IMG/VR virus record: IMGVR_UViG_3300036770_005357
Reading direction: 5' to 3' (one strand)
DNA: 64,000 nucleotides
Source of the DNA: a virus
Lineage: Duplodnaviria; Caudoviricetes
Shown here piece after piece: positions 18,710-32,852 of the stretch. The position numbers were made by a program, and so were the translations under genes. The notes under the pieces were generated by a model. The model was not told the DNA's origin. It made no database searches and saw only the letters and a list, made by a program, of their open reading frames with translations. The number at the start of each line of letters is the position of its first letter. Within the stretch, counting starts at the first letter, position 1.

Positions 18710-19093
18710 TGGTGGACGTGGCGAGAGTTGAACTCGCGTCTTTAAAAGGTAACCTATACCAGACTACATGCTTATATATTTTAATATTGTTAGGAATAAT
18801 AATTAAAAATATCTAAAAATATTATTCTTAAGATTTATAAAAATTTGACCGTCAACATAAATCAAATTAACAGTCTCAATCTGATGGTTTACACCCAATA
18901 TCACTATCAGATATCATAATATTGAATGCGCTGCAACTCAGGCAGCTAGTGCTACGACATCATCATAAGAGAAGTCATAGCTGATTACATTATCTTCAGC
19001 AGTTAATGTTTTAATAGATGATTAAAGAGGCCAACTATTATCCTCTACATGCCTAATATAAGTGTACTTTTAAATCGATACCAGTACACGCCC
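18710..19093 (-). ncRNA. ssrA: tmRNA
   Basis: 5' GGGCGTG pairs with 3' CACGTCC-ACCA including G3:U70; T-loop GTTCAAC; resume context TAACT-GCT; tag ORF 19000-18938 encodes AEDNVISYDFSYDDVVALAA*. Confidence 0.95.
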
Positions 19094-19102
19094 ATAAAAT
19101 TT

Positions 19103-19176
19103 TGGAGCGGGTAGCCGGAATCGAACCGGCACGTCGACCTTGGCAAGGTTGCAGGCTACCACTACATCATACCCGC
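19103..19176 (-). tRNA. tRNA-Gly(GCC)
   Basis: Cloverleaf, anticodon loop TTGCCAA, encoded CCA. Confidence 0.95.
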
Positions 19177-19188
19177 GCTCTCTAAACT

Positions 19189-19264
19189 TGGTGGACCCGA
19201 CAGGATTCAAACCTGCGACCTATAGCTTGCAAAGCTACCGCTCTATCAACTGAGCTACGAGCCC
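19189..19264 (-). tRNA. tRNA-Ala(TGC)
   Basis: Cloverleaf, loop TTTGCAA, G3:U70, CCA. Confidence 0.95.
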
Positions 19265-19337
19265 GTACAAAAAATATATAGTATTCTACACCCACTAATT
19301 GATATTTATATATACATAAATTAAACAAAGGATAATT

Positions 19338-19490
19338 ATGATATTAACAATCGTATTAGTAATAGCAACAGCAGTAGGAGTATTCCTATTCGTAAAGAAT
19401 AACCCACTCAGAGCTAAGAAAATTGATGACGCCGCTAAAGAAGTCATCAAGGAAGTAGAAGAAAAAGTAGAAGAAATTATCAAAAAGTAA
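19338..19490 (+). CDS. Small single-TM protein (50 aa)
   Basis: MILTIVLVIATAVGVFLFVKNNPLRAKKIDD...; AAGGA upstream; terminator downstream. Confidence 0.65.
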   Translation: MILTIVLVIATAVGVFLFVKNNPLRAKKIDDAAKEVIKEVEEKVEEIIKK

Positions 19491-19510
19491 TTATTCTCCT
19501 AACTTAAATC

Positions 19511-19543
19511 AAGCGCCGTACCTCATAAAGTACGGCGTTTTTT
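19511..19543. terminator. Rho-independent terminator
   Basis: gcgccgtac-ctcataaa-gtacggcgttttttt. Confidence 0.85.
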
Positions 19544-19734
19544 ATTGGATGACCGTGGGTTGCGAATATACGAGGATTTCACCTTTGTTCCAATGTCTAT
19601 CTAACGTCAACTTCACCCTTCTCCTCCTCCACGGGAGGTGTTTTACAATTCTATATCACTAACGATCAAATCTTATTATCCCATTTACATATCGTAGTGT
19701 CCGACACTACAATCGGTAAACGATATTTTAAAAT

Positions 19735-19808
19735 TGGCAGGGGATGGTGGAATCGAACCACCACTAGTTGATCCAAAGTCAACTGCACTACCATTATGCA
19801 AATCCCCA
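19735..19808 (-). tRNA. tRNA-Gln(TTG)
   Basis: Cloverleaf, loop CTTTGGA, CCA. Confidence 0.95.
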
Positions 19809-19815
19809 ATTGAAA

Positions 19816-19889
19816 GTGAGCGGGTAGCGGGAATTGCACCCGCACATAGGCTTTGGAAGAGCCTCAGGCTACTATTACATCATACCCGC
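19816..19889 (-). tRNA. tRNA-Gly(TCC)
   Basis: Loop CTTCCAA; T-loop TGCAATT; 3' end TCAC rather than TCCA. Confidence 0.85.
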
Positions 19890-19895
19890 AAAAAT

Positions 19896-20384
19896 TTAAA
19901 TTATTTTTAATTCACAATCACTAATTTTTTCAAATTTAATTAATCTAGCATGATACTCACCGTGATGATTCGGACATATTGCAAACATGTTTCCAACTTC
20001 ATACTTTCCACCGTCTTTTCCTTCAATAAAACGATGAACGTTATAAACTTTATTATAAGTACATCCATTTACCATGCAATGATTAAAGTTAAATTTATCT
20101 TTGAGTAATTTCAATCTATATTGAGTTTTTGATCTAAATTTATCTTTTGAATATGGTCCTCTTAGATTTGATGCTGCACAAACATTACTACAAAATTTTT
20201 GTGCAAATCGTTCCGGTAAAAATGATTTATTACAAAATTTACAATTTATAACAACTCGTTTAGTGATTGTATTGAAATAACATTTACGACAACAATATTT
20301 CTTTTTTTCAACCGGTCTTTTATATAAAATATTGTTACAATTTATATTGTCACACTTATGATTAGGAGTTCTATTTAATGTCAT
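19896..20384 (-). CDS. HNH endonuclease with Cys-rich zinc-binding repeats (free-standing homing type)
   Basis: CxxC repeats; VHRFIEGKDGG...GNMFAICPNHH. Confidence 0.8.
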   Translation of the reverse strand: MTLNRTPNHKCDNINCNNILYKRPVEKKKYCCRKCYFNTITKRVVINCKFCNKSFLPERFAQKFCSNVCAASNLRGPYSKDKFRSKTQYRLKLLKDKFNFNHCMVNGCTYNKVYNVHRFIEGKDGGKYEVGNMFAICPNHHGEYHARLIKFEKISDCELKII

Positions 20385-20435
20385 ATAGATAAATATGCTT
20401 ACGCTCATTAAACCACTCTATTATTTTAATAAAAA

Positions 20436-20528
20436 TGGCGGAAGCGAAGGGTGCTGCCCCCTCAGTGGCTTTTAAACCACGGCAGTTTAGCAAACTGCTG
20501 TAGAAACCTGACTATCTACGTCACTTCC
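20436..20528 (-). tRNA. tRNA-Ser(GCT), atypical T-loop
   Basis: Loop TTGCTAA, long variable arm, G73, CCA; T-loop GCAGCA. Confidence 0.85.
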
Positions 20529-20613
20529 ATAAAATTATTTAAAGCATCTCCGATTTCTTCAAGGGACGAACATTATCAGTCCTCGGTTCTAAGCTCGTAG
20601 AGTTGTATTGAAA

Positions 20614-20704
20614 TGGTGGTGAGAGAGGGATTCGAACCCCCGGAGGCTTTTAAACCTCGTCTGATTTCAAGTCAGGTGCCTTAAACCAACTCAGCCACCT
20701 CACC
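20614..20704 (-). tRNA. tRNA-Ser(TGA)
   Basis: Loop CTTGAAA, long variable arm, CCA. Confidence 0.9.
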
Positions 20705-20710
20705 TCAAAT

Positions 20711-20795
20711 TGGTGGGCATAGAGGGACTTGAACCCCCACAGAGTAATCCACAAGAACCTAAATCTTGCGCGTCTGCCAATTTCGCCATATGCCC
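20711..20795 (-). tRNA. tRNA-Leu(TAG)
   Basis: Loop TTTAGGT, class II, CCA. Confidence 0.95.
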
Positions 20796-20800
20796 GAAAA

Positions 20801-20879
20801 TGGTCGGAGTAGTTGGATTTGAACCAACGAAATTGTCCAGTTCCCAAAACTGGCCGGGTGACCGCTCCCGAATACTCCG
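20801..20879 (-). tRNA. tRNA-Pro(TGG)
   Basis: C1-G72, loop TTTGGGA, CCA. Confidence 0.9.
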
Positions 20880-20888
20880 ATTAAAATT

Positions 20889-21584
20889 TTAAAAATCTAT
20901 TGAATAATATTTACACCATTTTCTGATTGCGTTATCTGACACGCCATATTTTTTACCCAACGATAAAAATGTATTATTTTTTATTTCTTGTTCTAATATT
21001 TCTTTAGAAGGTCTCTCTACTTTTCTTAATTTTTTCATAGAACATATTCTACATACATTAGTATAACCACTAGTTTCTAACTTACATTCTATACAATTAT
21101 ATTTTTTAGTTTTTTTAGATTTTCCACAATACGTGTCTGTTTGTGAGTGACAATTTGGACATAACAATCTTAAATTAGATAAAGTGTTATTAACATGATC
21201 ACCGTCAATGTGATCTAATTGTAATTTTATTGGTTTATTATTCCATATATCTCTTATATTACATTCAGCACATTTATTTTCTACTAAATTAAATTTTATT
21301 AATTTATTTTTTAACCAAACTGTTTCTATGTCGGAATTTTCTTTCAATCTAAGTAATAACTCATCTTTAGAAATTGTATTAGCATTTTTAATTGAAAAAA
21401 TTTCGTTCTTAGAAAGAAAATGTGATGTATCAATTTTTTCAATTTGTATTCTTCGTTTTATTGTTCTATAATTTCCGCCTTCTTTTCTCATGTTCAATGT
21501 TTTACAAACATCGGACATACAACTATTACTTTTAATAATTTTTTCAAAATCTTCTTTTGAAATATTCCAAATTTTACTTTTCAT
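20889..21584 (-). CDS. HNH homing endonuclease
   Basis: CAEC...LQLDHIDGDHVNNTLSNLRLLCPNCHSQT; C-terminal HTH (LGKKYGVSDNAIRKW). Confidence 0.9.
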   Translation of the reverse strand: MKSKIWNISKEDFEKIIKSNSCMSDVCKTLNMRKEGGNYRTIKRRIQIEKIDTSHFLSKNEIFSIKNANTISKDELLLRLKENSDIETVWLKNKLIKFNLVENKCAECNIRDIWNNKPIKLQLDHIDGDHVNNTLSNLRLLCPNCHSQTDTYCGKSKKTKKYNCIECKLETSGYTNVCRICSMKKLRKVERPSKEILEQEIKNNTFLSLGKKYGVSDNAIRKWCKYYSIDF

Positions 21585-21652
21585 AGTACAATATCATATC
21601 TTTGGTAATAAATAGATAAGAGTTCAACTGAACGCTTATTTTTTATTAAAAA

Positions 21653-21728
21653 TGGTGGGCGAGGAGGGACTTGAACCCCCGATAGGCACAGTGTAAGTGT
21701 GCTACTTTAGCCACTAAGTTACTCGCCC
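21653..21728 (-). tRNA. tRNA-Val(TAC)
   Basis: Stem GCACA/TGTGC, loop CTTACAC, CCA. Confidence 0.95.
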
Positions 21729-21742
21729 GTAAAAATTACTAT

Positions 21743-21831
21743 TTCCGTCATCGCCATTTGGGTTCTGCACAAAGCATATCACCCAGTGACCGATCAAGTG
21801 TTTAAGGGCACACCAGATAGAGTTTCAAGCC
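21743..21831 (-). ncRNA. Unidentified structured RNA motif, copy 1 (tRNA-operon leader)
   Basis: Shares TTGAAACTC.ATCTG and GGTGATATG..CAGAACCCAAA.GGCGATGACGGAA with 30868-30988. Confidence 0.6.
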
Positions 21832-21849
21832 CGTCGTCATTATGTACTA

Positions 21850-21877
21850 ACTATACCACTAAATTTAATACTGTCAA
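21850..21877 (-). promoter_or_regulatory. Sigma70-type promoter of tRNA operon 1
   Basis: TTGACA-N16-TATAGT. Confidence 0.8.
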
Positions 21878-21889
21878 CTATCAAATCAA

Positions 21890-21927
21890 AAACCCACCAT
21901 CTTTTTCAGATTGGTGGGTTATTTTTT
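21890..21927. terminator. Rho-independent terminator
   Basis: aacccacca...tggtgggtt flanked by A and T runs. Confidence 0.8.
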
Positions 21928-22100
21928 AAGCAACAAACAACCATGCCAATCATGTACCTTGTGGTACTTGACTACTCGATGGTTGTGAAACTGTGTTTAA
22001 CATACAACAATATATATCATAAAGATTCTCAAATGTCAGATAAAAAAATAAACCCGCTGGATTTCTCCAACGGGCTTATTATAATTTAATCTAATTTAGA

Positions 22101-22814
22101 TTAGAATGTGAACTTAGCACCAGCGCTATAAACAACGGTGTTCTTGAATTGCTTAACGCCGAGGTTAGCACTCTTTACAACATCAAAGTTGTTATCATAC
22201 CAACCTACATCAACATATGGTGTAACGACACCAATTGGAGTGTTGATTGGACGAGTCAAGGTACCATGTACATTGACAGCATCATACGAGGTCATACGAC
22301 CCCATTCAACCGCTGGTGTAATGACAAATCCGAGGAACAATTTTTGTTCACGGGAAGCACCAACGAAATAACCACTTTGTTGAGTTTCTTGGAAGAAAGC
22401 GCCGCGGATATATGGAGTTACATATGGATTCTCAAGAGACAACTTAGCACCGAGTTCAGTTGAACTTTGAAGTGTTCCGGCTGTGATTTGATGACGAGTT
22501 GCGGTTACATCGCCACGAAGGGCGAAATCACCATAAACCTTAATGCTCTTACCGAGGCCGAGGGTCCAATGAGTTTGGTTTCTTCCTTCATCAGATAAAA
22601 ATACGCCTCCGATGTAAGCGTCTACATACTTGAATGATTTGCTAACACCAAGTGCTCCGTATGGAGTGGCAAGAGTGTAAGCAACGCCATCAACTACATA
22701 GTAGTTGTTATAACCACCATCTAGTGTAAGACTAATTGGTGAGCCAGCATCAGCAGCCGAAAGGCCAAATACTGATACCAACAATGCTGTTAATACTGAT
22801 AATAGTTTCTTCAT
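22101..22814 (-). CDS. Signal-peptide outer-membrane beta-barrel-like protein (host-derived, PVC-like)
   Basis: Signal MKKLLSVLTALLVSVFGLSAADA; alternating beta strands; C-terminal aromatic (AGAKFTF). Confidence 0.7.
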   Translation of the reverse strand: MKKLLSVLTALLVSVFGLSAADAGSPISLTLDGGYNNYYVVDGVAYTLATPYGALGVSKSFKYVDAYIGGVFLSDEGRNQTHWTLGLGKSIKVYGDFALRGDVTATRHQITAGTLQSSTELGAKLSLENPYVTPYIRGAFFQETQQSGYFVGASREQKLFLGFVITPAVEWGRMTSYDAVNVHGTLTRPINTPIGVVTPYVDVGWYDNNFDVVKSANLGVKQFKNTVVYSAGAKFTF

Positions 22815-22912
22815 AATATTAATATTTCCTTTTTGTTTTGTTTATAATGTGACACCGGCCACATTTTTAGGAGTAATCCTAAATCTTATTATATATATTT
22901 TTTATAAAACTG

Positions 22913-23233
22913 TTAAAATTTATTTAATTTCTTGAGTCTCTTACTAAGCGCTCTATCTTTCTCTGGTAGATAGACATATGAAGCTTTAAAATTTTCTTCA
23001 TTTTCTGTTAGAACGCTGATGGTATCTTCAGTTACATCTAAAACTTTACCAATGGCATTCTTAATAAATCTAAAACTATTGACGCCTTCAATGTCAATAC
23101 AGATACCATAAGACATATCTCTATATTGTACATCAGCGACTCCATAATGAGTTTTCAACATAGTTTTAATTTGGTTCTTTTTATCTTCGTTTAGAACCAT
23201 ATTAGCCATTTCTAACTTTGTTAATGTATTCAT
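22913..23233 (-). CDS. Hypothetical protein
   Basis: ORF track. Confidence 0.55.
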   Translation of the reverse strand: MNTLTKLEMANMVLNEDKKNQIKTMLKTHYGVADVQYRDMSYGICIDIEGVNSFRFIKNAIGKVLDVTEDTISVLTENEENFKASYVYLPEKDRALSKRLKKLNKF

Positions 23234-23334
23234 ATTTTATTATTATATTTGTAATTTAATTTATGTCAATAAAAAACGAAACGATTAACGGGTTAAATTA
23301 ATCGTTTCAATTTGCGTAAGTTGTTGTTAATTAA

Positions 23335-24534
23335 TTACTTATTTTTCTTTAATGCTTTTAATTTCTTCTTCAATTCGTCTGGTTTATTTACGGCTAACCA
23401 TCTAGCATAATCTTCTTTTTCTCTACGATCTAATTCATTATCTCTATAAATTTTTGCATTTTGTTTCACAATATCTCTGAATGGATCACCACTTTCTTTT
23501 TTTATTGGAATATTTTTACCGGTCAAATCTAATATCTCATTTGGAATATTAGTAGTAACAATCTTCCTTTCAATACTTAATATCTCCAACTCTTCAGGTG
23601 TCAAATTTCTTAAAATTGACTTTACATCTTCATCGTCACGATTGCTGCTTGGCTTATTTACTGTATTTAAAATATAATTGAATGGAGTACTTGTCTTGTA
23701 TACTACATCAGCAGTTCTTTCACTGCCTGATTTTGAAGCACCTTTATATAATAATAGTGTAGTACCTTCACGACCACCGCCAGTAAATACTTGAACAGTA
23801 GCCGCTGGATAATTACCTTCTAAATCGTAAGCATCCAATTCTTCTTTAATCAGTTGTTTAATTAATTGTTTAAGTTTTGTTTCGTTCATAGAAATTCTAT
23901 CTTTGAGTTTATTAAAATTCTTTTCAACTGATTGCCATCTTTGTTTATCTTTATCACTGTCATCGGGACTTGGCAACACATCTTGTAAAGTCAATGGACT
24001 ATTATGAAAATCACTTACTAACTTTTCCATATCATCCATCATTTTTCTATAATCACCCAATGTTGGATCAGCCGACATTACATCATCTTTTTCTTTAGTT
24101 GCTTTTTCAATTGCAGATTGATCGCCTGTCTTTTTAGCATTTAAATATGATTTGAATGTAAGCGATCTCTTTTGTTGCCAATCCTTATATTCAGGTTTGG
24201 AATAGTGTTCTTTGTCCCAAGCATCTCGTTGTCTATTTATTACATCAAGCTTACGAAAATTGATGAAACTAGTAACCGAATCCATCAAATTACTTAATAA
24301 CACTTGTAGATCTTGATCATCAACACTTCCACCGATTGGATACTTGTTCATCACATGTAACCTAGAAAAACTAGTAGCATTCAACAAATTTTTTAACTTC
24401 TTTCCAACCAACTTCTTCATAAAGTCTTCTACACTATTGGTAGATTGTGCAATTTGTTGGAACGGAACCAATGCCTGTTCATTGGATTCTTTAATGGTTT
24501 CTAATATCAGCTTTTTAAAATCTCTAAGTTTCAT
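23335..24534 (-). CDS. Leader-tagged putative internal virion protein (two leader-like motifs)
   Basis: MKLRDFKKLILETIKESNE; internal MNETKLKQLIKQLIKEE; TATTTATT upstream. Confidence 0.6.
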   Translation of the reverse strand: MKLRDFKKLILETIKESNEQALVPFQQIAQSTNSVEDFMKKLVGKKLKNLLNATSFSRLHVMNKYPIGGSVDDQDLQVLLSNLMDSVTSFINFRKLDVINRQRDAWDKEHYSKPEYKDWQQKRSLTFKSYLNAKKTGDQSAIEKATKEKDDVMSADPTLGDYRKMMDDMEKLVSDFHNSPLTLQDVLPSPDDSDKDKQRWQSVEKNFNKLKDRISMNETKLKQLIKQLIKEELDAYDLEGNYPAATVQVFTGGGREGTTLLLYKGASKSGSERTADVVYKTSTPFNYILNTVNKPSSNRDDEDVKSILRNLTPEELEILSIERKIVTTNIPNEILDLTGKNIPIKKESGDPFRDIVKQNAKIYRDNELDRREKEDYARWLAVNKPDELKKKLKALKKNK

Positions 24535-24553
24535 ACCCTAATAAATATAAAAA

Positions 24554-24775
24554 CTATAGGGTTATTTCAGCAGATATTACATCATCATCAGAAAATCCAC
24601 CTATCTTAATAGATTTACCGTTACTTAAGTGTATTACTAATATTTGTAAATCACCGGTACTATTCTTAAGTGACTCAACCCTAAGCACTTGATTATCATT
24701 TAATTCATTCTTAATATCATCGCCTATAGAATCGGATTCAGCAAGTGTTCTTCTCAATGGATTTAATCGTATCAT
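24554..24775 (-). CDS. Small leader-tagged protein
   Basis: MIRLNPLRRTLAES; TATTTATT upstream. Confidence 0.55.
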   Translation of the reverse strand: MIRLNPLRRTLAESDSIGDDIKNELNDNQVLRVESLKNSTGDLQILVIHLSNGKSIKIGGFSDDDVISAEITL

Positions 24776-24814
24776 ATTAATAAATATTCAAAGTTAGTTA
24801 TATTTATAGATTAA

Positions 24815-25555
24815 ATGGCATTGGTAAACTATACATATCTTTTAGATCAAAACAACTTAATTAGTTGGTTAACTTCTATTTCCGAGACCGATCCTAATCC
24901 AACAATAAGAACTGCTGCCAAAAAAATAGCATTTAATGTAAGTGGAAATAAAATAATAGAAAGTTGGTATTATTATAACGAACTTTATAAAAAATATCAA
25001 TTTAAATTAGTAACCATAAATACCATAAACGGATTTAATGTAGTACTTTATTCTTATACAAATCAAGGTGAAAAATTTATAGGCAGTGTTAAAAAATATG
25101 TTCCAGCGAAACCTATACAAGTAAAAAGTTTATCTGTTCCAATTGTTGATGAAATTGGTACAACATATGATAGAACTCCTTCTATATCAGGATTTTCAGA
25201 CGCCAATCTACAAATTTACATTTACGACGGTGGTCAATTACTTGGTCAAACTACATCTAACGAACTTGGTGAATGGGAATTTACCGTAACAACGAATCTA
25301 TCATTCGGAAATCATTCAATAACTGCCGTAGCTTCAAACGGAACGGAATTCAGCAATTCCAGTAAAGTTGTAAATTTTACAATACTTGAAATAACCGTTC
25401 CCACTGTAACATTCACATCACCTACAGATGACACGACACCTACAATTACAGGTACAGCGCCTGCTTTAAGCACAGTCACGGTTTATAATAATGAAAGTCC
25501 GATAGGTACAACAACCGCTGATAGCGAAGGTAATTGGTCATTTACATTAACTTAA
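24815..25555 (+). CDS. Bacterial Ig-like domain protein (one complete and one truncated Ig domain)
   Basis: TYDRTPSISG...IYDGGQLLGQTTSNELGEWEFT...HSITAVAS; second repeat TDDTTPTITG...GNWSFTLT*. Confidence 0.8.
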   Translation: MALVNYTYLLDQNNLISWLTSISETDPNPTIRTAAKKIAFNVSGNKIIESWYYYNELYKKYQFKLVTINTINGFNVVLYSYTNQGEKFIGSVKKYVPAKPIQVKSLSVPIVDEIGTTYDRTPSISGFSDANLQIYIYDGGQLLGQTTSNELGEWEFTVTTNLSFGNHSITAVASNGTEFSNSSKVVNFTILEITVPTVTFTSPTDDTTPTITGTAPALSTVTVYNNESPIGTTTADSEGNWSFTLT

Positions 25556-25560
25556 AAAAC

Positions 25561-27414
25561 ATGTCAACACCAAATCCATTATTAGCCCCTAGATATTTGA
25601 CGGGAACAAATTATTATGTTGAACCTAGCCCTGGTGTATATGAACCCGGCTTGCCAAAATGGGGTGTAACAATTAATCCAAGTGGATGGTCAGCACCTGC
25701 AAATACACCAAAAAATAAACCTGAATATTATGGATATAGAATCGGTCAAGAAAACATAATCCCATATGTTTATTCAATATTATGGAATTATACATCTTGT
25801 TCAATAAGTACAGGAACTCATTGGTGGGGAAGAAAAAGTACAGACCCTTTTTGGACAACTGCCGCTCCGGCAGCTGACATTTTATTAATATTAGGATATT
25901 CTCCATTAAATAATAAGATCACAATCAGTGGTTCTGGAATTGACAACACAATATTGAAACGAGTAGATGAATCTGATTTAATAGGAGGATATGCTACATT
26001 TCCTATAGTGCCAACGGGAATAACAAACACAAGTACAGGTGAAATTTCGGGTGGTACCACTACTTTAAAAATATGTTGGCGAGATCAACATACTACACCT
26101 TCAGCTTATTATTGGTACAAAAATAATGTTTTAATATCGGGTGCTAATAGTTCCGAATATACAATCACACTTGCAGCCGGAGGTGCTGCAGCGGGAGTTT
26201 ATAAATGTGGTGTGAACATGACACCTTCATATCAAGGTTCAAGTAATTTTGCTACAAGTAATGAAGTTACTATAACTTACAACAGTTCAAAATATTACGC
26301 AAGTTATTACACAATAACTTCTAACAGAATGATACAAGCTTACGGTGCAACATTTGGTGTAAATAGTACTGATAATGTTTTAATTGAAGGAATAACTTTT
26401 GATGGTAATCATACTAATAATTACACAACAAACAGTCCGACAAGTGATTGTCTTTCTCTAATAGGAACAAATCACAGAATAAATAAATGTAAATTTGTTG
26501 ATTTCGGCGTTGGAAATACTGTGTATGAATACGATTCAACAAATCCAAGTCCTGGTTTAGCGGAAACTTTCGTAATACTGTCACAACCACCTACTGCTAA
26601 TTGGAAAACAAATCTCGGACCTAAGATAGAAAATTGTATATTTACACAAAATGGAGTTAAAGACGGACCTGAACAGTATCCAACAGTTACAACATCTCAT
26701 ATTCCAGAATATACATGTATAGCTGTACACGGATCCGGTTCGGTTGTAAAAAACAATCAATTTATAGATCTATTGTTTGATGACGATCATAGAAGCCCAA
26801 TCCACGCTATTAGTTTCGGTGGAAATTATTCTGGATCATTTTACGAAAATACATTCAAAAATGTACAAGGTCCGTGTTTTTACATTGATAGTTACAAAGT
26901 AACCGGTTCAAAAATTCAAGACAATTATTGTAGCAGTTCTTGGAATTTTATAACTCTTACATCACAAACTTGGCCGTCAACAAATCAAATTGCAAATTTC
27001 AAAAATATAGATATGAGAGATAATACAGTGATATTATCGGATGGACCAACAACATATAATTACTTCGTAGGTATGGGTGGTGGATTTTGGCCAAGTCATC
27101 ATATTGCATATTTTGCCAGTTCTACTTTGGTACATCCGTATGATATGGTTACTAGTAGTTTAAATGTAATTAAAAAAGGATATTGGGATGGAACTCCGCC
27201 GGATTGGGCATCAGGTGCTGTTCCACAATCGGCTGTATATAGTTACATTATATTTCCAAGAGACTCCTCTATGGCAACAAGATGTGTGGGCCCAACATAT
27301 ATAACATCTTCAAATGAAATATTTGCTTCTAGATTGTTATCCATAACAGCAACTGCTGCTATAGGAGGACAAACAAGTGACGCTAGTACATCACAAACAT
27401 TGATAATAACCTAA
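25561..27414 (+). CDS. Parallel beta-helix (pectin-lyase-like) protein with Ig-like insert
   Basis: ITISGSGIDNTILKR, VLIEGITFDGN, IENCIF, VKNNQF repeats; SAYYWYKNNVLISGANSSEYTI...GVYKC Ig motif. Confidence 0.7.
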   Translation: MSTPNPLLAPRYLTGTNYYVEPSPGVYEPGLPKWGVTINPSGWSAPANTPKNKPEYYGYRIGQENIIPYVYSILWNYTSCSISTGTHWWGRKSTDPFWTTAAPAADILLILGYSPLNNKITISGSGIDNTILKRVDESDLIGGYATFPIVPTGITNTSTGEISGGTTTLKICWRDQHTTPSAYYWYKNNVLISGANSSEYTITLAAGGAAAGVYKCGVNMTPSYQGSSNFATSNEVTITYNSSKYYASYYTITSNRMIQAYGATFGVNSTDNVLIEGITFDGNHTNNYTTNSPTSDCLSLIGTNHRINKCKFVDFGVGNTVYEYDSTNPSPGLAETFVILSQPPTANWKTNLGPKIENCIFTQNGVKDGPEQYPTVTTSHIPEYTCIAVHGSGSVVKNNQFIDLLFDDDHRSPIHAISFGGNYSGSFYENTFKNVQGPCFYIDSYKVTGSKIQDNYCSSSWNFITLTSQTWPSTNQIANFKNIDMRDNTVILSDGPTTYNYFVGMGGGFWPSHHIAYFASSTLVHPYDMVTSSLNVIKKGYWDGTPPDWASGAVPQSAVYSYIIFPRDSSMATRCVGPTYITSSNEIFASRLLSITATAAIGGQTSDASTSQTLIIT

Positions 27415-27575
27415 TTAACAGATTTTCGCCAATCAACTCTATGTTTCTGTATCCAATCTACTAAAGCATTCTCAAATCCAATGTCTTTATTAGCCTTTTC
27501 ACTCTCTAACCACTTGTGTTTGTGTATTTCGTTCTTCATGTATATAAACTTTTTGTAGAGAGTCTCATTCTTCAT
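27411..27575 (-). CDS. Small DUF4032-like protein (PVC-type)
   Basis: Hand translation MKNETLYKKFIYMKNEIHKHKWLESEKANKDIGFENALVDWIQKHRVDWRKSVN. Confidence 0.65.
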   Translation of the reverse strand: MKNETLYKKFIYMKNEIHKHKWLESEKANKDIGFENALVDWIQKHRVDWRKSVN

Positions 27576-27592
27576 AATAATATATATAGTAT

Positions 27593-28048
27593 ATGCCCTA
27601 CGAATACAACGCTACAGTTATTGATATTGTTGATGGTGATACCATAACAGTTGATATTGATCTCGGATTTAATGTAAAATTAGCCAACCAAAAAGTTAGA
27701 TTGCTCGGTGTAGATACTCCCGAAAGTAGAACAAGTGATAAAATTGAAAAAATATTTGGCACCGCTAGTAAAGAATATACTAAAAAATTTATTGACGAAT
27801 GTAAAGACAAAACTGTTGTAATAAGAACATATCTAAGTAACAGCGAAGAAAAATTTGGTAGACTGCTCGGTGAAATTATAAATCCAACTACTAAAAAAAT
27901 TCTCAACGAAGAACTTATAAAAAATAACTACGCCGTAAAATATCTAGGCGAAAATAAAGATAATGTAAAATCTCAACATCTAGCAAATAGAAAAAAATTG
28001 ATTGATGCTAAAATTGTCAATCTTTCTTATAAAGAAGCTGGATTATAA
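27593..28048 (+). CDS. Thermonuclease (staphylococcal nuclease fold)
   Basis: IVDGDTITVDIDLGF...VRLLGVDTPES...EKFGRLLG. Confidence 0.95.
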   Translation: MPYEYNATVIDIVDGDTITVDIDLGFNVKLANQKVRLLGVDTPESRTSDKIEKIFGTASKEYTKKFIDECKDKTVVIRTYLSNSEEKFGRLLGEIINPTTKKILNEELIKNNYAVKYLGENKDNVKSQHLANRKKLIDAKIVNLSYKEAGL

Positions 28049-28426
28049 ATTTCGCAATTTATTAAAAAATTGTTTGTTAGCTTTATCGGTTGTATATACC
28101 AAAATCTCACCGTCTCTTAATTTAAAAAATTTCTTTGAACGATTATACATTTTAGTCCCAATACCCATTCGTCTATATTTTCGTTTTATATAAATCATAA
28201 ACTCGTACTTAGTAAGTTTATATTTAGCTCGTTCTTTTATAATAGACCAACCAATAACTTTGCCATTTTCTTTTGCTAAAAAAACTCTGTTCTTTATTTT
28301 TTTATCTGGACTGCAACAATCAGTATACAAATTAAAAATAGAGCCTGTAGAAATTAATTTGCTACAGGCTTTTTCTTCCTCAAATGTCAAATTTTTTGCT
28401 TCTTTAGAAGTTATTCTAATTACCAC
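28043..28426 (-). CDS. GNAT-family acetyltransferase
   Basis: IYIKRKYRRMGIGTKM acetyl-CoA motif A. Confidence 0.8.
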   Translation of the reverse strand: MVIRITSKEAKNLTFEEEKACSKLISTGSIFNLYTDCCSPDKKIKNRVFLAKENGKVIGWSIIKERAKYKLTKYEFMIYIKRKYRRMGIGTKMYNRSKKFFKLRDGEILVYTTDKANKQFFNKLRNL

Positions 28427-28578
28427 ATATTATAAATATTAATATCAATGTTACAAAAATATTAAATATGTTTGGTGCTAGTTGATCTGCCAATTCGTTC
28501 TCCTTCGTCAACTACTCACACACACGAAACGATAAAAAGTGCGGTTAACACCAAACACTTCTATAAGTAGAATCAAAA

Positions 28579-29238
28579 TTAGATATAAATCTTCGTTTTT
28601 TCATGTCCAACAACCACTTCTAAATCAACATTTACCTTATAACCTAACCGAGTAGCCTCTCTACACCATGCCACATCCTCCATTGTAAAGTCTTTACATC
28701 CTTTTATATCCACAAATTCAGGCCTAAACCACGGATACTGCATACTCTCAAATACCCCCTTTTTGACCAAAATAAACCCAAAACCTGTATAAACTACCGG
28801 TAAAAGTGTCTTTTCTCGCTTGATTCTGCCTACATCATCAGTCGTCATAAAGTGAAAAGCTTCATTCTTTTTAAACAAATCTTCATCCCATGTTTCAACA
28901 GTTGCATAAGCTTTGCCGCCGTCCATCAAATATAATCCACTTACAATATCTTGCTTATGATCCAATAACCTTTGAAACTGTTGCGCACTAAACAATATAT
29001 CGCTGTCAATCCACATCATATAGTCATAGTCCAATTTGCCATCAAATGGTTTTTGATTTTCTCCTCTTGCAATTGAACCACCCAAACACATGTTACGCAC
29101 ATAATATATGTTGCAACTATATTGCTGGTTAACCATCACTTGATAATTCTTACTATGACAATGTGCAATTAGTTCAGTCCAACATCTCAAAAAATTGCCA
29201 CTATATTCTCTGCCCGGTAAACAAAACAATATCTTCAT
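28579..29238 (-). CDS. Glycosyltransferase (GT-A fold)
   Basis: YDYMMWIDSDILF, DIVSGLY, TGFGFILVKKGVFE, MEDVAWC, VGHEK. Confidence 0.85.
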   Translation of the reverse strand: MKILFCLPGREYSGNFLRCWTELIAHCHSKNYQVMVNQQYSCNIYYVRNMCLGGSIARGENQKPFDGKLDYDYMMWIDSDILFSAQQFQRLLDHKQDIVSGLYLMDGGKAYATVETWDEDLFKKNEAFHFMTTDDVGRIKREKTLLPVVYTGFGFILVKKGVFESMQYPWFRPEFVDIKGCKDFTMEDVAWCREATRLGYKVNVDLEVVVGHEKTKIYI

Positions 29239-29262
29239 AATAATATATATTTTTTAATAAAA

Positions 29263-29335
29263 TGGTAGTCCCATCTGGATTTGAACCAGAACGCTGCGCT
29301 AATCAGGCACAGATGCTACATTACATCATAGGACC
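29263..29335 (-). tRNA. tRNA-Ile(GAT)
   Basis: Loop CTGATTA, short D-loop, CCA. Confidence 0.85.
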
Positions 29336-29344
29336 ATTAAAAAT

Positions 29345-29414
29345 TGGTGGATGTGACTTGAACTGACAACACGAAGTGCTTCAAACTTCTGCTCTACATT
29401 GGAGCTGCTGAGCC
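29345..29414 (-). pseudogene. Degenerate tRNA-Phe(GAA)
   Basis: Anticodon arm GAAGT-TTGAAGC-ACTTC intact; T-stem and acceptor 3' strand partly deleted; CCA retained. Confidence 0.65.
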
Positions 29415-29415
29415 A

Positions 29416-30081
29416 TTAAAAATTGTAATTGGTTCTATATGTTGAAATTATTGCCCATTGATTTTCTGGTTGAAAAGCTTTTGGGAACTTTAAATATGAT
29501 GCGTGACTATCAACAAAAATATATGTAGAGCCACCATTATGCTTTTTAAAATCTAATTCAGTTACATCATTTCCTTTACCTTCAAATATATCCATATAAA
29601 AATGTTTTGATTTACCCGTCTTTTCTCCAAATACAACAGTCTCACTCACAAATGGTATTGAACTAGCTTTCACTGGTTCCTCCAAAACATCCCAATCACC
29701 ATCAAATATATCAAAATAATAATCGTTAAATCCATTGATTATAAAACTTCTATTAGCTTTATTTATATTCGTTTCAACCAAATTATTTGTAAACTTATCT
29801 ACAGGACACATTAACACATTCTGACTTTCAAAGTATGGTTTCAACGCCATCGGCCATTGATTAGTCAAACTTCTTGGCGGTATACTATCACTATAATCAA
29901 TCTTGTATTGTTCTAATCCAATACCCAATTGCCTTGCATTATTTAGACACTTTATTTGTTGCGCTTTGCTTTTTGCACCACTTAAAGCCGGTAATAACAT
30001 ACCAGCCAATATTGCAATAATAGCAATCACCACCAACAATTCTATCAATGTAAATGCACGTCTATTAAAATCTTTATTCAT
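29416..30081 (-). CDS. Prepilin-type N-methylation (pseudopilin) protein, PVC H-X9-DG family
   Basis: [46 protein letters not shown]; [14 protein letters not shown]. Confidence 0.9.
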
Positions 30082-30103
30082 ATATCATATATATTAAAAA
30101 AAC

Positions 30104-30250
30104 TAGATTGTATGGTTGAATTTGAACCAACGGCTACCTTTACAACTTGTAAGATATCCTACAAGAAAATTTTACGACCTAACATAAGATTTTTACGGGC
30201 TTACCCCATAGTTAGGAATTCTGCTCTACCGCTGAGCTACACATAATCTA
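30104..30250 (-). ncRNA. tRNA-like RNA with extended acceptor stem and multi-helix insert replacing the anticodon arm
   Basis: D-arm TAGCTCAGCGGTAGAGC; T-arm GTTGG-TTCAAAT-TCAAC; 11-bp closing stem with one mismatch; about 90-nt structured centre. Confidence 0.65.
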
Positions 30251-30253
30251 AAA

Positions 30254-30339
30254 TGGTGGGATATGTAGGTAACGCTCCTACCCAGCCCGAAGACAACGCA
30301 TTTACAGTGCGTTCCATGTCTTTAGTGGTATAATATCCC
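30254..30339 (-). tRNA. tRNA-Tyr(GTA), atypical D- and T-loops
   Basis: ACGCA-CTGTAAA-TGCGT; long variable arm; T-loop AGCGTTA; CCA. Confidence 0.85.
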
Positions 30340-30346
30340 ATAAAAT

Positions 30347-30422
30347 TGGCTCCTACCCTCTGATTTGAACAGAGATATTACAAATTAACAGTTTGTCTCA
30401 TTACCAGTTATGATAGATAGGA
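30347..30422 (-). tRNA. tRNA-Asn(GTT)
   Basis: ACAAA-CTGTTAA-TTTGT; G73; CCA. Confidence 0.9.
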
Positions 30423-30438
30423 ATTAAAAACTTAAAAT

Positions 30439-30513
30439 TGGCATAGACGGTGGGTAACGCTCCCACATAAAGCAGTTTTGGAGACTGCTGCATTTCTTGT
30501 CTGCCACGTCTAT
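30439..30513 (-). tRNA. tRNA-Trp(CCA)
   Basis: GCAGT-CTCCAAA-ACTGC; T-loop AGCGTTA; CCA. Confidence 0.9.
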
Positions 30514-30520
30514 ATAAACT

Positions 30521-30601
30521 TGGAGTACCGTGTTGGTAACGCTCCAACCAAAATATTATCAGTTTTGCAGACTGACCCCTTCACTTGTCGGGCAACGGTA
30601 C
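30521..30601 (-). tRNA. tRNA-Cys(GCA)
   Basis: TCAGT-CTGCAAA-ACTGA; U73; T-loop AGCGTTA; CCA. Confidence 0.85.
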
Positions 30602-30608
30602 ATAAATT

Positions 30609-30683
30609 TGGGTTGCTCGATGGGTACTGCCCCCACTTGGGTAGCTTCACAAACTACGACATTACTTTTATGTTACGAGCAAC
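30609..30683 (-). tRNA. tRNA-His(GTG)
   Basis: G-1:C73; GTAGT-TTGTGAA-GCTAC; T-loop GGCAGTA; CCA. Confidence 0.9.
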
Positions 30684-30729
30684 ATTGAAATGGAGCCAGA
30701 GTAAAACTTGAAAAATATTTAATTTAAAT

Positions 30730-30821
30730 TGGAGCCTCCAGTCAGATTCGAACTGACAAAGGGTTATTAACCCATACTTGTTTACAAAACAAGGCCGATA
30801 ACCAATTCCGGTCATAGAGGC
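30730..30821 (-). tRNA. tRNA-Thr(TGT) with long variable arm
   Basis: CTTGT-TTTGTAA-ACAAG; G1-C72, C2-G71, U73; variable arm GGGT-TAAT-AACCC; CCA. Confidence 0.75.
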
Positions 30822-30867
30822 ATTAAAATTTTCCTTACTTCAACATTCACGGAAATCACCTCAACAA

Positions 30868-30988
30868 TTCCGTCATCGCCCTTTGGGTTCTGTACGATAC
30901 ATATCACCTACGGACCAATCAATTGATTTTTTGAGATCTTTACCCCTTTTATTATCTCAGGGAGGTTCAACAGATGGAGTTTCAAACC
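30868..30988 (-). ncRNA. Unidentified structured RNA motif, copy 2 (tRNA-operon leader)
   Basis: Homologous to 21743-21831, with a larger variable insert. Confidence 0.6.
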
Positions 30989-31001
30989 TTATTGTTTATT
31001 T

Positions 31002-31029
31002 ACTATATCATAGTTTTACAAATCGTCAA
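31002..31029 (-). promoter_or_regulatory. Sigma70-type promoter of tRNA operon 2
   Basis: TTGACG-N16-TATAGT. Confidence 0.8.
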
Positions 31030-31211
31030 TAACCAAAATAAAAAACCGCCACTTTTTAAGGTGACGGTTAATATTGTTTGACTTCCAACCCTATACAATA
31101 TCACCGACACCACACTTACAATTCGTAAATGTATGCCACTTAATATTATCTGTATAATAGTTGTTCATCGTTACATCAATATATATCACTTTATTTTAAA
31201 AAAGTCAAATA

Positions 31212-32852
31212 TTATTTTTCTAGAAAATACAATCGATCTTCAATTATTAAATAATCTACAATTCCATTTATTAAATGATTCACCGCATTTTCAGGCCAAC
31301 ATACGATTGGTTCTTCATGTACATTAAATGATGTATTCACTAATAAAGGAATGCCTGTCAGATTATAAAACGATATCAATATATCATATAATAATTTATT
31401 TTTTTCTTTATATACTAATTGTATTCTAGCGGTTTTGTCAACAGGATGAACTGCAGCGGGTATACGATCCTGCCATTCGACTTTTGTATCATATAACATC
31501 GTCATAAATTCCGCTGTATATCTACTTTTATTAATATCAAAAACTTGATCTGCATATTTTGCCAAAACAACAGGTGCAAATGGCATAAAATCGTTACGTT
31601 GCAATCGATCGTTTAATTTTTTATAAGTTTCTTTTTTAGATGCATCTGCCAATATAGTTCTATTTCCCAATGCACGTGGACCGTATTCCATTCGACCTTG
31701 AAATAGTCCGATTATATTTCCATTATATAATAAATTTGCAATTTTATTTGAATCTAAATTTTCAATTTTAAATTTATAATCTTTAAATGTTATATTAATT
31801 GTATCATCAATTTCTTCTTTGGAATAAGAACTACCAAGATAAACATCGTTCAATTTAAAAACTTTTTTATGTTCATTGGATTGACACATTAGAGCAGATC
31901 CCAATGTCAAACCTTCATCACCCATAGGCGGCGTAATATAAACTTCATCTACCCAATCTAATTCATTTATCTTTTTATTTAATTTTACATTTGCAAATAC
32001 TCCACCACTCAAACATAATTTTTTGTATTCAGGATATGTTTTATGTAAGTTATTTAATATCTGTAAAATTTTTTCTTCAAAAATATATTGTCCTGTATAT
32101 GCATAATTAGATAAATTTTTTTTATTTTTATAGTATACATCCCCCATAAATTCAAAATATCGTTTGTAAAACTCCGTGAAGATATATTCAAAATTTTTGC
32201 CATATGGCATTTTTTTTGTAGAAACATGTTTAATATCACCAATTATATCATTATATATTTTATAAATATATTCATCAAAACAACCATGAGAAGACATACC
32301 TACAATTTTACCTTCATCTTTTAATCGTTTAAATCCCAGAAATTCTGTCAGTAAACAATAAAACATTCCCAATGAAACACAATCATCAGTAATACCATCA
32401 ACATATTTTAATTCATTATTTTCACCCAAATAATACTTTGCAGAATAACCATCGCCACTACCATCCATAGATATAACTAAACATTTATCATTAATAAATC
32501 CACTTGTATAATACGCCAAAACACAGTGAGCATCGTGATGATCATAAAATTTAACCTTATCTTTAAGATCAGATATATCAATAAACTGTGATAAACATTT
32601 ATTTATAAATTCATCACATTTTTCGTTGTCATGTGGAAATAAAAAATAATCGATTGATTTAAAATCCAACTTATTCTTATAAAATAGTTCCAACAAACAC
32701 ATGTAAGGAAATCTAAATGTAGATTGATCAAAATCTATACACGATTTTATTCTAGTAAATCGTTCTTCCTCATAACAATATAAAATATTGCCGTTATCAA
32801 CTAATGTAATTCCAGCACAATGAGTTCCATATACAATAGATAAAATTTTCAT
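31212..32852 (-). CDS. Carbamoyltransferase (NodU/CmcH family)
   Basis: EEERFTRIK, DHHDAH, MDGSGDG, EGKIVG, SGGVFANVKLN, PPMGDEGLTLG, GRMEYGPRALGNRTILAD, LLVNTSFNVHEEPIV. Confidence 0.95.
   Translation of the reverse strand: MKILSIVYGTHCAGITLVDNGNILYCYEEERFTRIKSCIDFDQSTFRFPYMCLLELFYKNKLDFKSIDYFLFPHDNEKCDEFINKCLSQFIDISDLKDKVKFYDHHDAHCVLAYYTSGFINDKCLVISMDGSGDGYSAKYYLGENNELKYVDGITDDCVSLGMFYCLLTEFLGFKRLKDEGKIVGMSSHGCFDEYIYKIYNDIIGDIKHVSTKKMPYGKNFEYIFTEFYKRYFEFMGDVYYKNKKNLSNYAYTGQYIFEEKILQILNNLHKTYPEYKKLCLSGGVFANVKLNKKINELDWVDEVYITPPMGDEGLTLGSALMCQSNEHKKVFKLNDVYLGSSYSKEEIDDTINITFKDYKFKIENLDSNKIANLLYNGNIIGLFQGRMEYGPRALGNRTILADASKKETYKKLNDRLQRNDFMPFAPVVLAKYADQVFDINKSRYTAEFMTMLYDTKVEWQDRIPAAVHPVDKTARIQLVYKEKNKLLYDILISFYNLTGIPLLVNTSFNVHEEPIVCWPENAVNHLINGIVDYLIIEDRLYFLEK

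Follow-up and report, generated by a model that had tools for sequence, protein, structure and literature searches.

The 64,000-nucleotide (nt) stretch of DNA from an uncultured freshwater phage analyzed here (Caudoviricetes; IMG/VR record IMGVR_UViG_3300036770_005357; referred to below as the window) carries two tRNA operons, each of which begins with a copy of what is, judging from sequence comparison, a previously undescribed structured RNA that forms the first part of both tRNA operons in a clade of ~300-kb phages. Its predicted fold is an H-type pseudoknot, in which a GGN/NCC helix crosses a 9-bp helix (P2), followed by a bulged three-part 3′ hairpin. Promoter-proximal structured leaders are a known kind of element; the fold and its link to tRNA operons are new. 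The reading that we favor, with a probability of roughly 0.3, is that the leader acts in cis, similarly to the put elements of phage HK022, keeping RNA polymerase elongating through the tRNA operon.

Two copies and their predicted fold

A sequence-only reading of the window had proposed that the same RNA motif precedes both tRNA runs, and minus-strand copies at 21750-21832 (copy A) and 30875-30989 (copy B) are confirmed. They can be aligned end to end, except for a 32-nt insertion in copy B. The 25-nt 3′ box occurs exactly 2 times in the 64-kb window (0.00 expected from 100 shuffles), and the 15-nt 5′ box is likewise present at both positions. The parts of the two copies, scored with covariance model (CM) R2, are as follows.

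21750..21832, minus strand: copy A, short form (direct reading and alignment; CM R2 score, 95.5 bits)
21832-21829, minus strand: copy A, pseudoknot 5′ strand, GGGC
21828-21819, minus strand: copy A, loop L1, UUGAAACUCU
21818-21810, minus strand: copy A, P2 5′ strand
21809-21806, minus strand: copy A, pseudoknot 3′ strand, GCCC
21805-21802, minus strand: copy A, loop L3, UUAA
21801-21793, minus strand: copy A, P2 3′ strand
21790-21787 with 21756-21753, minus strand: copy A, P3a
21784-21781 with 21763-21760, minus strand: copy A, P3b
21780-21779, minus strand: copy A, bulge, GA
21778-21764, minus strand: copy A, terminal hairpin
21752-21750, minus strand: copy A, tail, GAU
30875..30989, minus strand: copy B, long form (direct reading and alignment; CM R2 score, 88.3 bits)
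30989-30986, minus strand: copy B, pseudoknot 5′ strand, AGGU
30985-30976, minus strand: copy B, loop L1, UUGAAACUCC
30975-30967, minus strand: copy B, P2 5′ strand
30966-30963, minus strand: copy B, pseudoknot 3′ strand, ACCU
30962-30927, minus strand: copy B, loop L3, with a 36-nt inserted branched hairpin
30926-30918, minus strand: copy B, P2 3′ strand
30915-30912 with 30881-30878, minus strand: copy B, P3a
30909-30906 with 30888-30885, minus strand: copy B, P3b
30903-30889, minus strand: copy B, terminal hairpin
30877-30875, minus strand: copy B, tail, GAU

The order of the elements is 5′-GGN, L1, the 5′ strand of P2 (AUCUGNUGN), NCC, L3, the 3′ strand of P2 (NCANUUGAU), YG, the P3a/P3b/terminal hairpin, and GGCGAU. 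The NCC lies immediately 3′ of the first strand of P2, and the three-part hairpin starts two nt past P2. Loop L1 reads UUGAAACUCY, with 9 of its 10 positions invariant (the invariant 9-nt loop UUGAAACUC); L3 is A-rich at its 3′ end and is the site of the variable insert.

Base pairs were counted on an alignment of 93 sequences with the pseudoknot annotated by hand, and a 31-sequence MAFFT alignment agrees with it. Standard pairs fill 88% of the pair cells, compared with 31-44% when the partners are slid by 1-3 columns, and the observed covariation score was reached by none of 500 shuffles. The pseudoknot pair beside the invariant G-C pairs is C-G in 48 sequences, G-C in 26, U-A in 18, and U-G in 1, and is never unpaired. 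Within P2, the sixth pair is U-A (57 sequences), G-C (29), or A-U (7), and the ninth is A-U (56) or U-A (37). The closing pair of P3a (GUCN/NGGC) is C-G in 51 sequences and A-U in 37, the first pair of P3b shows six pair types and one nonpair, and a terminal stem pair is G-C in 81 sequences and C-G in 9. All 93 sequences come from one clade and are 70-95% alike, so the shuffle control overstates the significance, because such sampling leaves few independent substitutions. Invariant noncanonical oppositions are found in P2 (U.U and G.U), P3a (U.G), the terminal stem (A.G), and the G-W bulge; together with the invariant L1, they suggest recognition by a macromolecule rather than mere folding.

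Some of the pairings that had been proposed from the two copies fared differently in the larger alignment. The variable hairpin does keep its pairing between the copies (UGC/GCA versus UGUA/UACA). The suggested AUYG/CGAU pseudoknot is compatible with the sequence of every copy, yet shows no compensatory change, and it is GGN/NCC across P2 that is supported instead. A GUC/GAC pairing has to be abandoned, as GUC makes up the 5′ strand of P3a and GAC is absent from about half of the copies. The words GACGGAA, thought to be conserved at the 3′ end, are replaced by GAUAAU in 42 of 91 copies; since this tail is not kept, the conserved element ends at GGCGAU.

Relatives and genomic context of the leader

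A CM built from the two copies detected a third one in an IMG/VR contig, at the same place downstream of a 61%-identical carbamoyltransferase gene, and a fourth one 10 kb away in the same contig, preceding a tRNA run. Exact-pattern scans of IMG/VR and of the JGI/ENA metagenomes yielded at least 93 distinct complete copies; the first exact pattern returned no matches because it included GAUGAC, a tail that is not conserved. Copies found via the 5′ half always carry the 3′ half too, save where a contig end intervenes.

All full copies come from one clade of uncultured jumbo phages (~300 kb), with contigs of up to 296-304 kb, retrieved, according to the run metadata, from subsurface, freshwater, riverine, and marine metagenomes. 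The number of copies per genome is always two, one short and one long: they are 9 kb apart in a genome that CheckV rates as 100% complete (296 kb) and 18 kb apart in one rated as 89% complete. Short-form copies, 85-95 nt long, are followed by tRNA-Val(UAC), -Pro, -Leu, and others. The long form (115-130 nt), with a branched hairpin inserted in the third pseudoknot loop, precedes a long-arm tRNA-Thr(UGU), -His, -Arg, and others. The terminal loop of the 3′ hairpin is identical between the two copies in several genomes (L288/L289, L250/L294, L081/L097, and L100) and differs between genomes; the two loops in the window differ from each other. Such within-genome identity points either to gene conversion of one copy by the other or to loops matched to a partner that is specific to the genome.

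Within the scope of the searches made, the RNA family is confined to this clade. Among GenBank phages, megablast of the region gave no match, and blastn with the motif gave only chance 30-nt matches in portal genes. No convincing homologue was found at 54 further phage loci with a carbamoyltransferase gene or along the complete contigs of 25 of them; the best distant candidate (17.9 bits) lies inside a coding region. Among 185,579 bacterial and archaeal species genomes, six pattern matches were found. Two of these are the phage itself, on 3-kb contigs misbinned in metagenome-assembled genomes (MAGs) of Phycisphaerales and Woesearchaeota; two, in Pirellulaceae and Bryobacterales, lie inside open reading frames (ORFs) and are due to chance; and the remaining two have no CM match at E ≤ 10. 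Contigs from RNA libraries of four studies contain relatives of the motif, and some of them reach upstream past the −35 box of the promoter; they may represent DNA carry-over or read-through, and they show neither promoter-driven transcription nor RNA ends. The listed carriers of the 9.7-kb stretch include no RNA library.

A promoter of the type TTGAC-N16-TATAGT had been reported just upstream of each copy in the window; both promoters are present, both with the TG of an extended −10 box. They place the predicted transcript start about 10-11 nt before the first paired base of the motif, and the same arrangement is found in relatives. The tRNA runs likewise follow directly, with tRNA-Val located 21 nt past copy A and tRNA-Thr(UGU) located 53 nt past copy B.

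21850..21877, minus strand: promoter A, sigma-70 type, TTGACA-N16-TG-n-TATAGT (promoter scan, 11/12 matches, TG present)
31002..31029, minus strand: promoter B, sigma-70 type, TTGACG-N16-TG-n-TATAGT (promoter scan)
21888..21919, minus strand: terminator hairpin ACCCACCA...UGGUGGGU plus a U run, closing the preceding small unit before promoter A (read directly)
31044..31069, minus strand: intrinsic terminator just before promoter B (terminator scan)
18710..21728, minus strand: operon A, with tRNA-Val, an HNH endonuclease ORF, tRNA-Pro/Leu/Ser, a 170-aa ORF, tRNA-Gly/Gln, tRNA-Ala/Gly, and transfer-messenger RNA (tmRNA)
29263..30821, minus strand: operon B, with long-arm tRNA-Thr(UGU), tRNA-Cys/Trp/Asn, a pseudopilin-like ORF, and tRNA-Ile

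Altogether, 130 distinct contexts were examined, of which 3 proved to be GC-rich chance matches, and the claim that the motif heads tRNA operons holds in about 125 independent contexts from related phages. An upstream flank of 60 nt or more is available for 127 contexts, and 117 of these have a TTGAC-N17-19-TAnnnT promoter ending 5-21 nt before the motif. The 10 that lack an adjacent promoter comprise the 3 chance matches and 7 others, 6 of which share another order of elements: a terminator and a promoter come first, then an additional tRNA-Val, a 56-aa ORF, and 8 nt, and lastly the motif and tRNA-Pro or tRNA-Val. The additional tRNA-Val and the ORF (starting with MENNVDKD) between promoter and motif, within the 400 nt upstream of the motif, mark a sublineage (L146, L292, L303, L122, and L304). 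Occurrences apart from a promoter or a tRNA operon were looked for, since the sequence-only reading had tied the motif to both. The tie to the promoter stands in part, the motif being ~330 nt away in these six contexts, and the tie to tRNAs stands fully, as the motif was never found away from a tRNA operon. Because the six contexts without an adjacent promoter still precede tRNAs, it is the tRNA run that is the invariant partner of the motif. With or without an adjacent promoter, the motif is always positioned early in the transcript of the tRNA operon.

ARAGORN places a tRNA 18-57 nt downstream of most copies. Throughout the clade, the tRNA run of the long-form operon opens with a tRNA-Thr(UGU) of 82-92 nt with a class II-like long variable arm, found at 30730-30821 (minus strand) in the window and 42-57 nt past the long-form copies in L073, L081, L096, L100, L286, and others. 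ARAGORN misses it in some loci, for example, around positions 4340-4420 of L001, where the tRNA-like sequence directly after the leader is skipped, and some other misses at long-form copies may have the same cause. In seven loci (L073, L081, L096, L121, L131, L300, and L301), ARAGORN also predicts, ~228-304 nt past the long-form motif, a tRNA whose anticodon has four bases (ctct) and which may be frameshift-suppressor-like or have an 8-nt anticodon loop.

In operon A, tRNA-Val is followed by the HNH ORF, seven further tRNAs, and the tmRNA; in operon B, the 92-nt tRNA-Thr(UGU) is followed by four further tRNAs and two ORFs. The phage-encoded tmRNA at the distal end of operon A (18710-19093, minus strand; 120 bits in Rfam) carries the tag AEDNVISYDFSYDDVVALAA. 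A GC-rich bidirectional hairpin (19511-19540, both strands) lies inside this minus-strand operon, as does a small antisense ORF on the plus strand (19338-19490); tRNA-Ala, tRNA-Gly, and the tmRNA are located beyond the hairpin, with no obvious promoter of their own.

Each tRNA promoter is preceded by a small separate transcription unit (21888-22019 and 31044-31188, both on the minus strand) in which TTGACA-N17-TGATATATAT is combined with a long imperfect hairpin and an intrinsic terminator; the terminator at 21888-21919 was read from the sequence, its 12-nt loop being longer than the limit of the scan tool. The unit probably encodes a further small RNA, and at least one relative has it as well (upstream of the L305 motif). 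Directly upstream of operon B is a gene for a NodU/TobZ-type carbamoyltransferase that has a Kae1-like subdomain (31212-32852, minus strand), and this synteny is kept in L001 (2049-3704). Among the tRNAs of operon B, many read ANN codons and require N6-threonylcarbamoyladenosine (t6A), and the carbamoyltransferase might have a role in tRNA modification. The ORF at 29416-30081 (minus strand), inside the tRNA array, has a prepilin N-methylation motif and a weak match to DUF1559, a domain typical of Planctomycetota; together with one phage contig (L435) binned in a Phycisphaerales MAG, it provides a weak hint at the host.

Comparison with known RNAs and possible functions

The sequence-only reading could not match the motif to a T-box or any known riboswitch, and scans with the 4,227 models of Rfam 15 (including riboswitches, T-box, small ribozymes, RNase P, EAR, and GOLLD/ROOL) bear this out. 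At gathering thresholds, they detected only tRNAs and the tmRNA in the whole window, and at E ≤ 10, within 400-450 nt around each copy, there was no plausible same-strand overlap with the motif.

A close counterpart in layout is the put RNA of HK022. The putL and putR sites, two per genome, are factor-independent processive antiterminators that are related in sequence and each preceded by an early promoter, with one copy at the promoter and the other about 270 nt downstream; the RNA consists of two stem-loop domains joined by a very short linker, the first stem lying in a triple-stranded region (PMC9378689). Like putL and putR, the leader occurs twice per genome in sequence-related versions, each early in a sigma-70 transcript, and is placed either at the promoter or some hundreds of nt past it (~330 nt in the six contexts); it also shares with put a size of about 70-130 nt and two stem-loop domains joined by 1-2 nt, the first of them triple-stranded or pseudoknotted. 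Unlike put, which heads protein-coding early operons, the leader heads tRNA operons and has a true H-type pseudoknot.

Under the put-like reading, the leader would act in cis as it emerges from the host RNA polymerase, binding the elongation complex and making it resistant to pausing and to Rho-dependent and intrinsic termination, as putL and putR do via the β′ zinc-binding domain and without protein factors. The long and largely untranslated operon, with its tRNAs, homing endonuclease and other ORFs, and tmRNA, would then be transcribed to its end, and RNase P cleavage at the first tRNA would remove the leader. A mostly untranslated operon of 2-3 kb interrupted by ORFs is a plausible Rho target, and antitermination of this kind is consistent with the position and architecture of the leader. 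The broader proposal, that it represents a new class of self-sufficient nascent-RNA elements that bind the host elongation complex and are dedicated to jumbo-phage tRNA/tmRNA operons, is put forward tentatively. In a variant of it, the same fold may sense a metabolite or uncharged tRNA and thereby tune the phage tRNA output.

Several observations weigh against put-like antitermination. Homology to put is absent: CM R2, run with filters off for the comparisons with both HK022 and T4, gave a best score of 8.7 bits (E = 0.21) on HK022 positions 27500-30100. A convincing intrinsic terminator for the leader to override was not found in either operon, the scan detecting only a weak hairpin at 19514-19537. 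A released stable RNA or a processing signal could have the same position and architecture as well. Furthermore, all copies come from one closely related clade, so independent compensatory events are few, and single-sequence folding energies are no better than those of shuffles (z = −0.66 to +1.1), so that thermodynamic stability alone would miss the motif.

Another conceivable function, which we regard as possible rather than likely, is that of a stable RNA of ~100-170 nt with a 5′-triphosphate that is freed by RNase P, made in step with the tRNAs, and active in trans, either titrating a host protein or RNA in the manner of a decoy or sponge or acting as a small RNA that base-pairs through the seed UUGAAACUC. 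Its 3′ end would be defined by the RNase P site 14-57 nt from the motif; the compactness of the pseudoknot and hairpin would protect against nucleases; near the 5′ end, there is an invariant single-stranded segment of 9 nt; and the terminal loops that are sometimes the same in one genome and differ between genomes (L288/L289, L250/L294, and L081/L097) fit this scheme as well. Bacterial tRNA operons do yield spacer-derived sponges, and phage precedents exist. In T4, rnaC (species 1) and rnaD (species 2), two structured non-tRNA RNAs of 119-139 nt and unknown function, are cotranscribed with a tRNA cluster that holds a homing endonuclease; unlike the leader, they are at the 3′ end of the cluster, and rnaC has a tRNA-like T-arm. 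GOLLD and ROOL, likewise unexplained, are noncoding RNAs of phages and prophages, often found beside tRNA islands, that reach 500-800 nt or more and form multimeric cages (bioRxiv 10.1101/2024.12.08.627333); they are not promoter-proximal leaders, and their Rfam models have no match here. However, in the six contexts in which an ORF comes before the motif, a released RNA would lack a separate, defined 5′ end; the window shows no enrichment of sequences complementary to the loop, with two additional matches that both lie away from gene starts; and homology to rnaC/rnaD is absent (5.6 bits or less for CM R2 across the T4 tRNA cluster).

A role in processing, in which the leader guides or times cleavage by RNase P or RNase E or prevents misfolding of the first tRNA and has no effect on RNA polymerase, seems rather unlikely. 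It would explain why a tRNA always comes right after the motif, even where the promoter is not adjacent, and why the two forms are paired with different tRNAs, the short one with tRNA-Val (or tRNA-Pro) and the long one with the unusual long-arm tRNA-Thr. Yet only the first tRNA of each operon has the motif, and the other 7-10 mature without it; the spacer to the tRNA (14-57 nt) is not conserved; and no complementarity to the following tRNA is seen.

Still less probable is a riboswitch-like sensor whose ligand is a metabolite, an alarmone, or a tRNA and which controls the tRNA output, perhaps by switching between P2/P3a and AUYG/CGAU. A pseudoknot with many invariant unpaired and noncanonical positions is aptamer-like, and the alternative 4-bp pairing is available in all copies, although it lacks compensatory changes. 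The 14-57 nt between GGCGAU and the tRNA contain no hairpin-plus-U terminator, ribosome-binding site, start codon, or ORF, and a classical riboswitch is unlikely because there is no such expression platform; no riboswitch family matches at E ≤ 10.

We consider very improbable a new class of self-cleaving ribozyme that shortens the tRNA precursor at its 5′ end or, in the six contexts where the motif lies between an ORF and the tRNAs and cleavage would be useful, cuts off the upstream mRNA: the small size, pseudoknot, and strong conservation of the motif speak for it, as does the abundance of small ribozymes in phage genomes, but the motif is already at the transcript 5′ end in most genomes, where cleavage has no evident use, and the hammerhead, twister, pistol, hatchet, and hepatitis delta virus-like models all lack a match. 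Hammerheads are defined by CUGANGA and GAAA boxes and by an unpaired UH at the cleavage site, with three helices around it. The hammerhead-like words (GAAAC...GUC...GAUGA) fail because the GAUGA box is not conserved: CGAUGA lacks U4 in some copies, CGAUAA is found in 42 of 91 (GAUGA becoming GAUAA in about half of the copies), and GUC is paired in P3a.

Other resemblances were considered and rejected. Like the leader boxA of rrn operons, where Nus factors mediate antitermination, the motif is promoter proximal, belongs to a stable-RNA operon, and has a short invariant single-stranded word, which, unlike boxA, sits within a pseudoknot. As a site for NusB/NusE, however, loop UUGAAACUC does not fit a consensus of the type GCUCUUUAACAA or CUUUGACAA, in what is a weak test; the E. 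coli consensus is UGCUCUUUAACAA, and the rrn leader of a planctomycete (Pirellulaceae) reads GAUCUUUGACAAUC. Mimicry of a CRISPR repeat, as in RNA anti-CRISPRs, was dismissed as a coincidence: only the 7-nt UUGAAAC is common with the 8-11-nt handle (e.g., GGAUUGAAAC), the base before it covaries with its pseudoknot partner and is never A, and no hairpin precedes it. The three GC-rich metagenome matches with UUGAAAC are due to chance, and one of them has a repeated CGCGGATTGAAAC word resembling the end of a CRISPR repeat. Finally, ACAGAACCC and AUCGGUCA resemble the 3′ region of E. coli RNase P RNA; their order is reversed, the first base is variable, and there is no match to an RNase P model.

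Significance for jumbo-phage tRNA operons

Large phages carry tens of tRNA genes, and to our knowledge, almost nothing is known about the control of their tRNA operons. The predicted leader would supply a compact defined fold as the obligatory first element of both tRNA operons across a clade of ~300-kb phages. With its 85 nt, it is a small object suited to transcription, probing, and structural work with a standard sigma-70 polymerase. It is also a candidate for a new Rfam family that would improve the annotation of freshwater viromes. If it is a released RNA, it would be a further case, after T4 rnaC/rnaD, GOLLD, and ROOL, of the still puzzling association of structured RNAs with phage tRNA islands. 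If it does modify RNA polymerase, it would extend the put mechanism, which we know essentially from one lambdoid phage, and would constitute the second natural put-like RNA system and the first one tied to tRNA supply.

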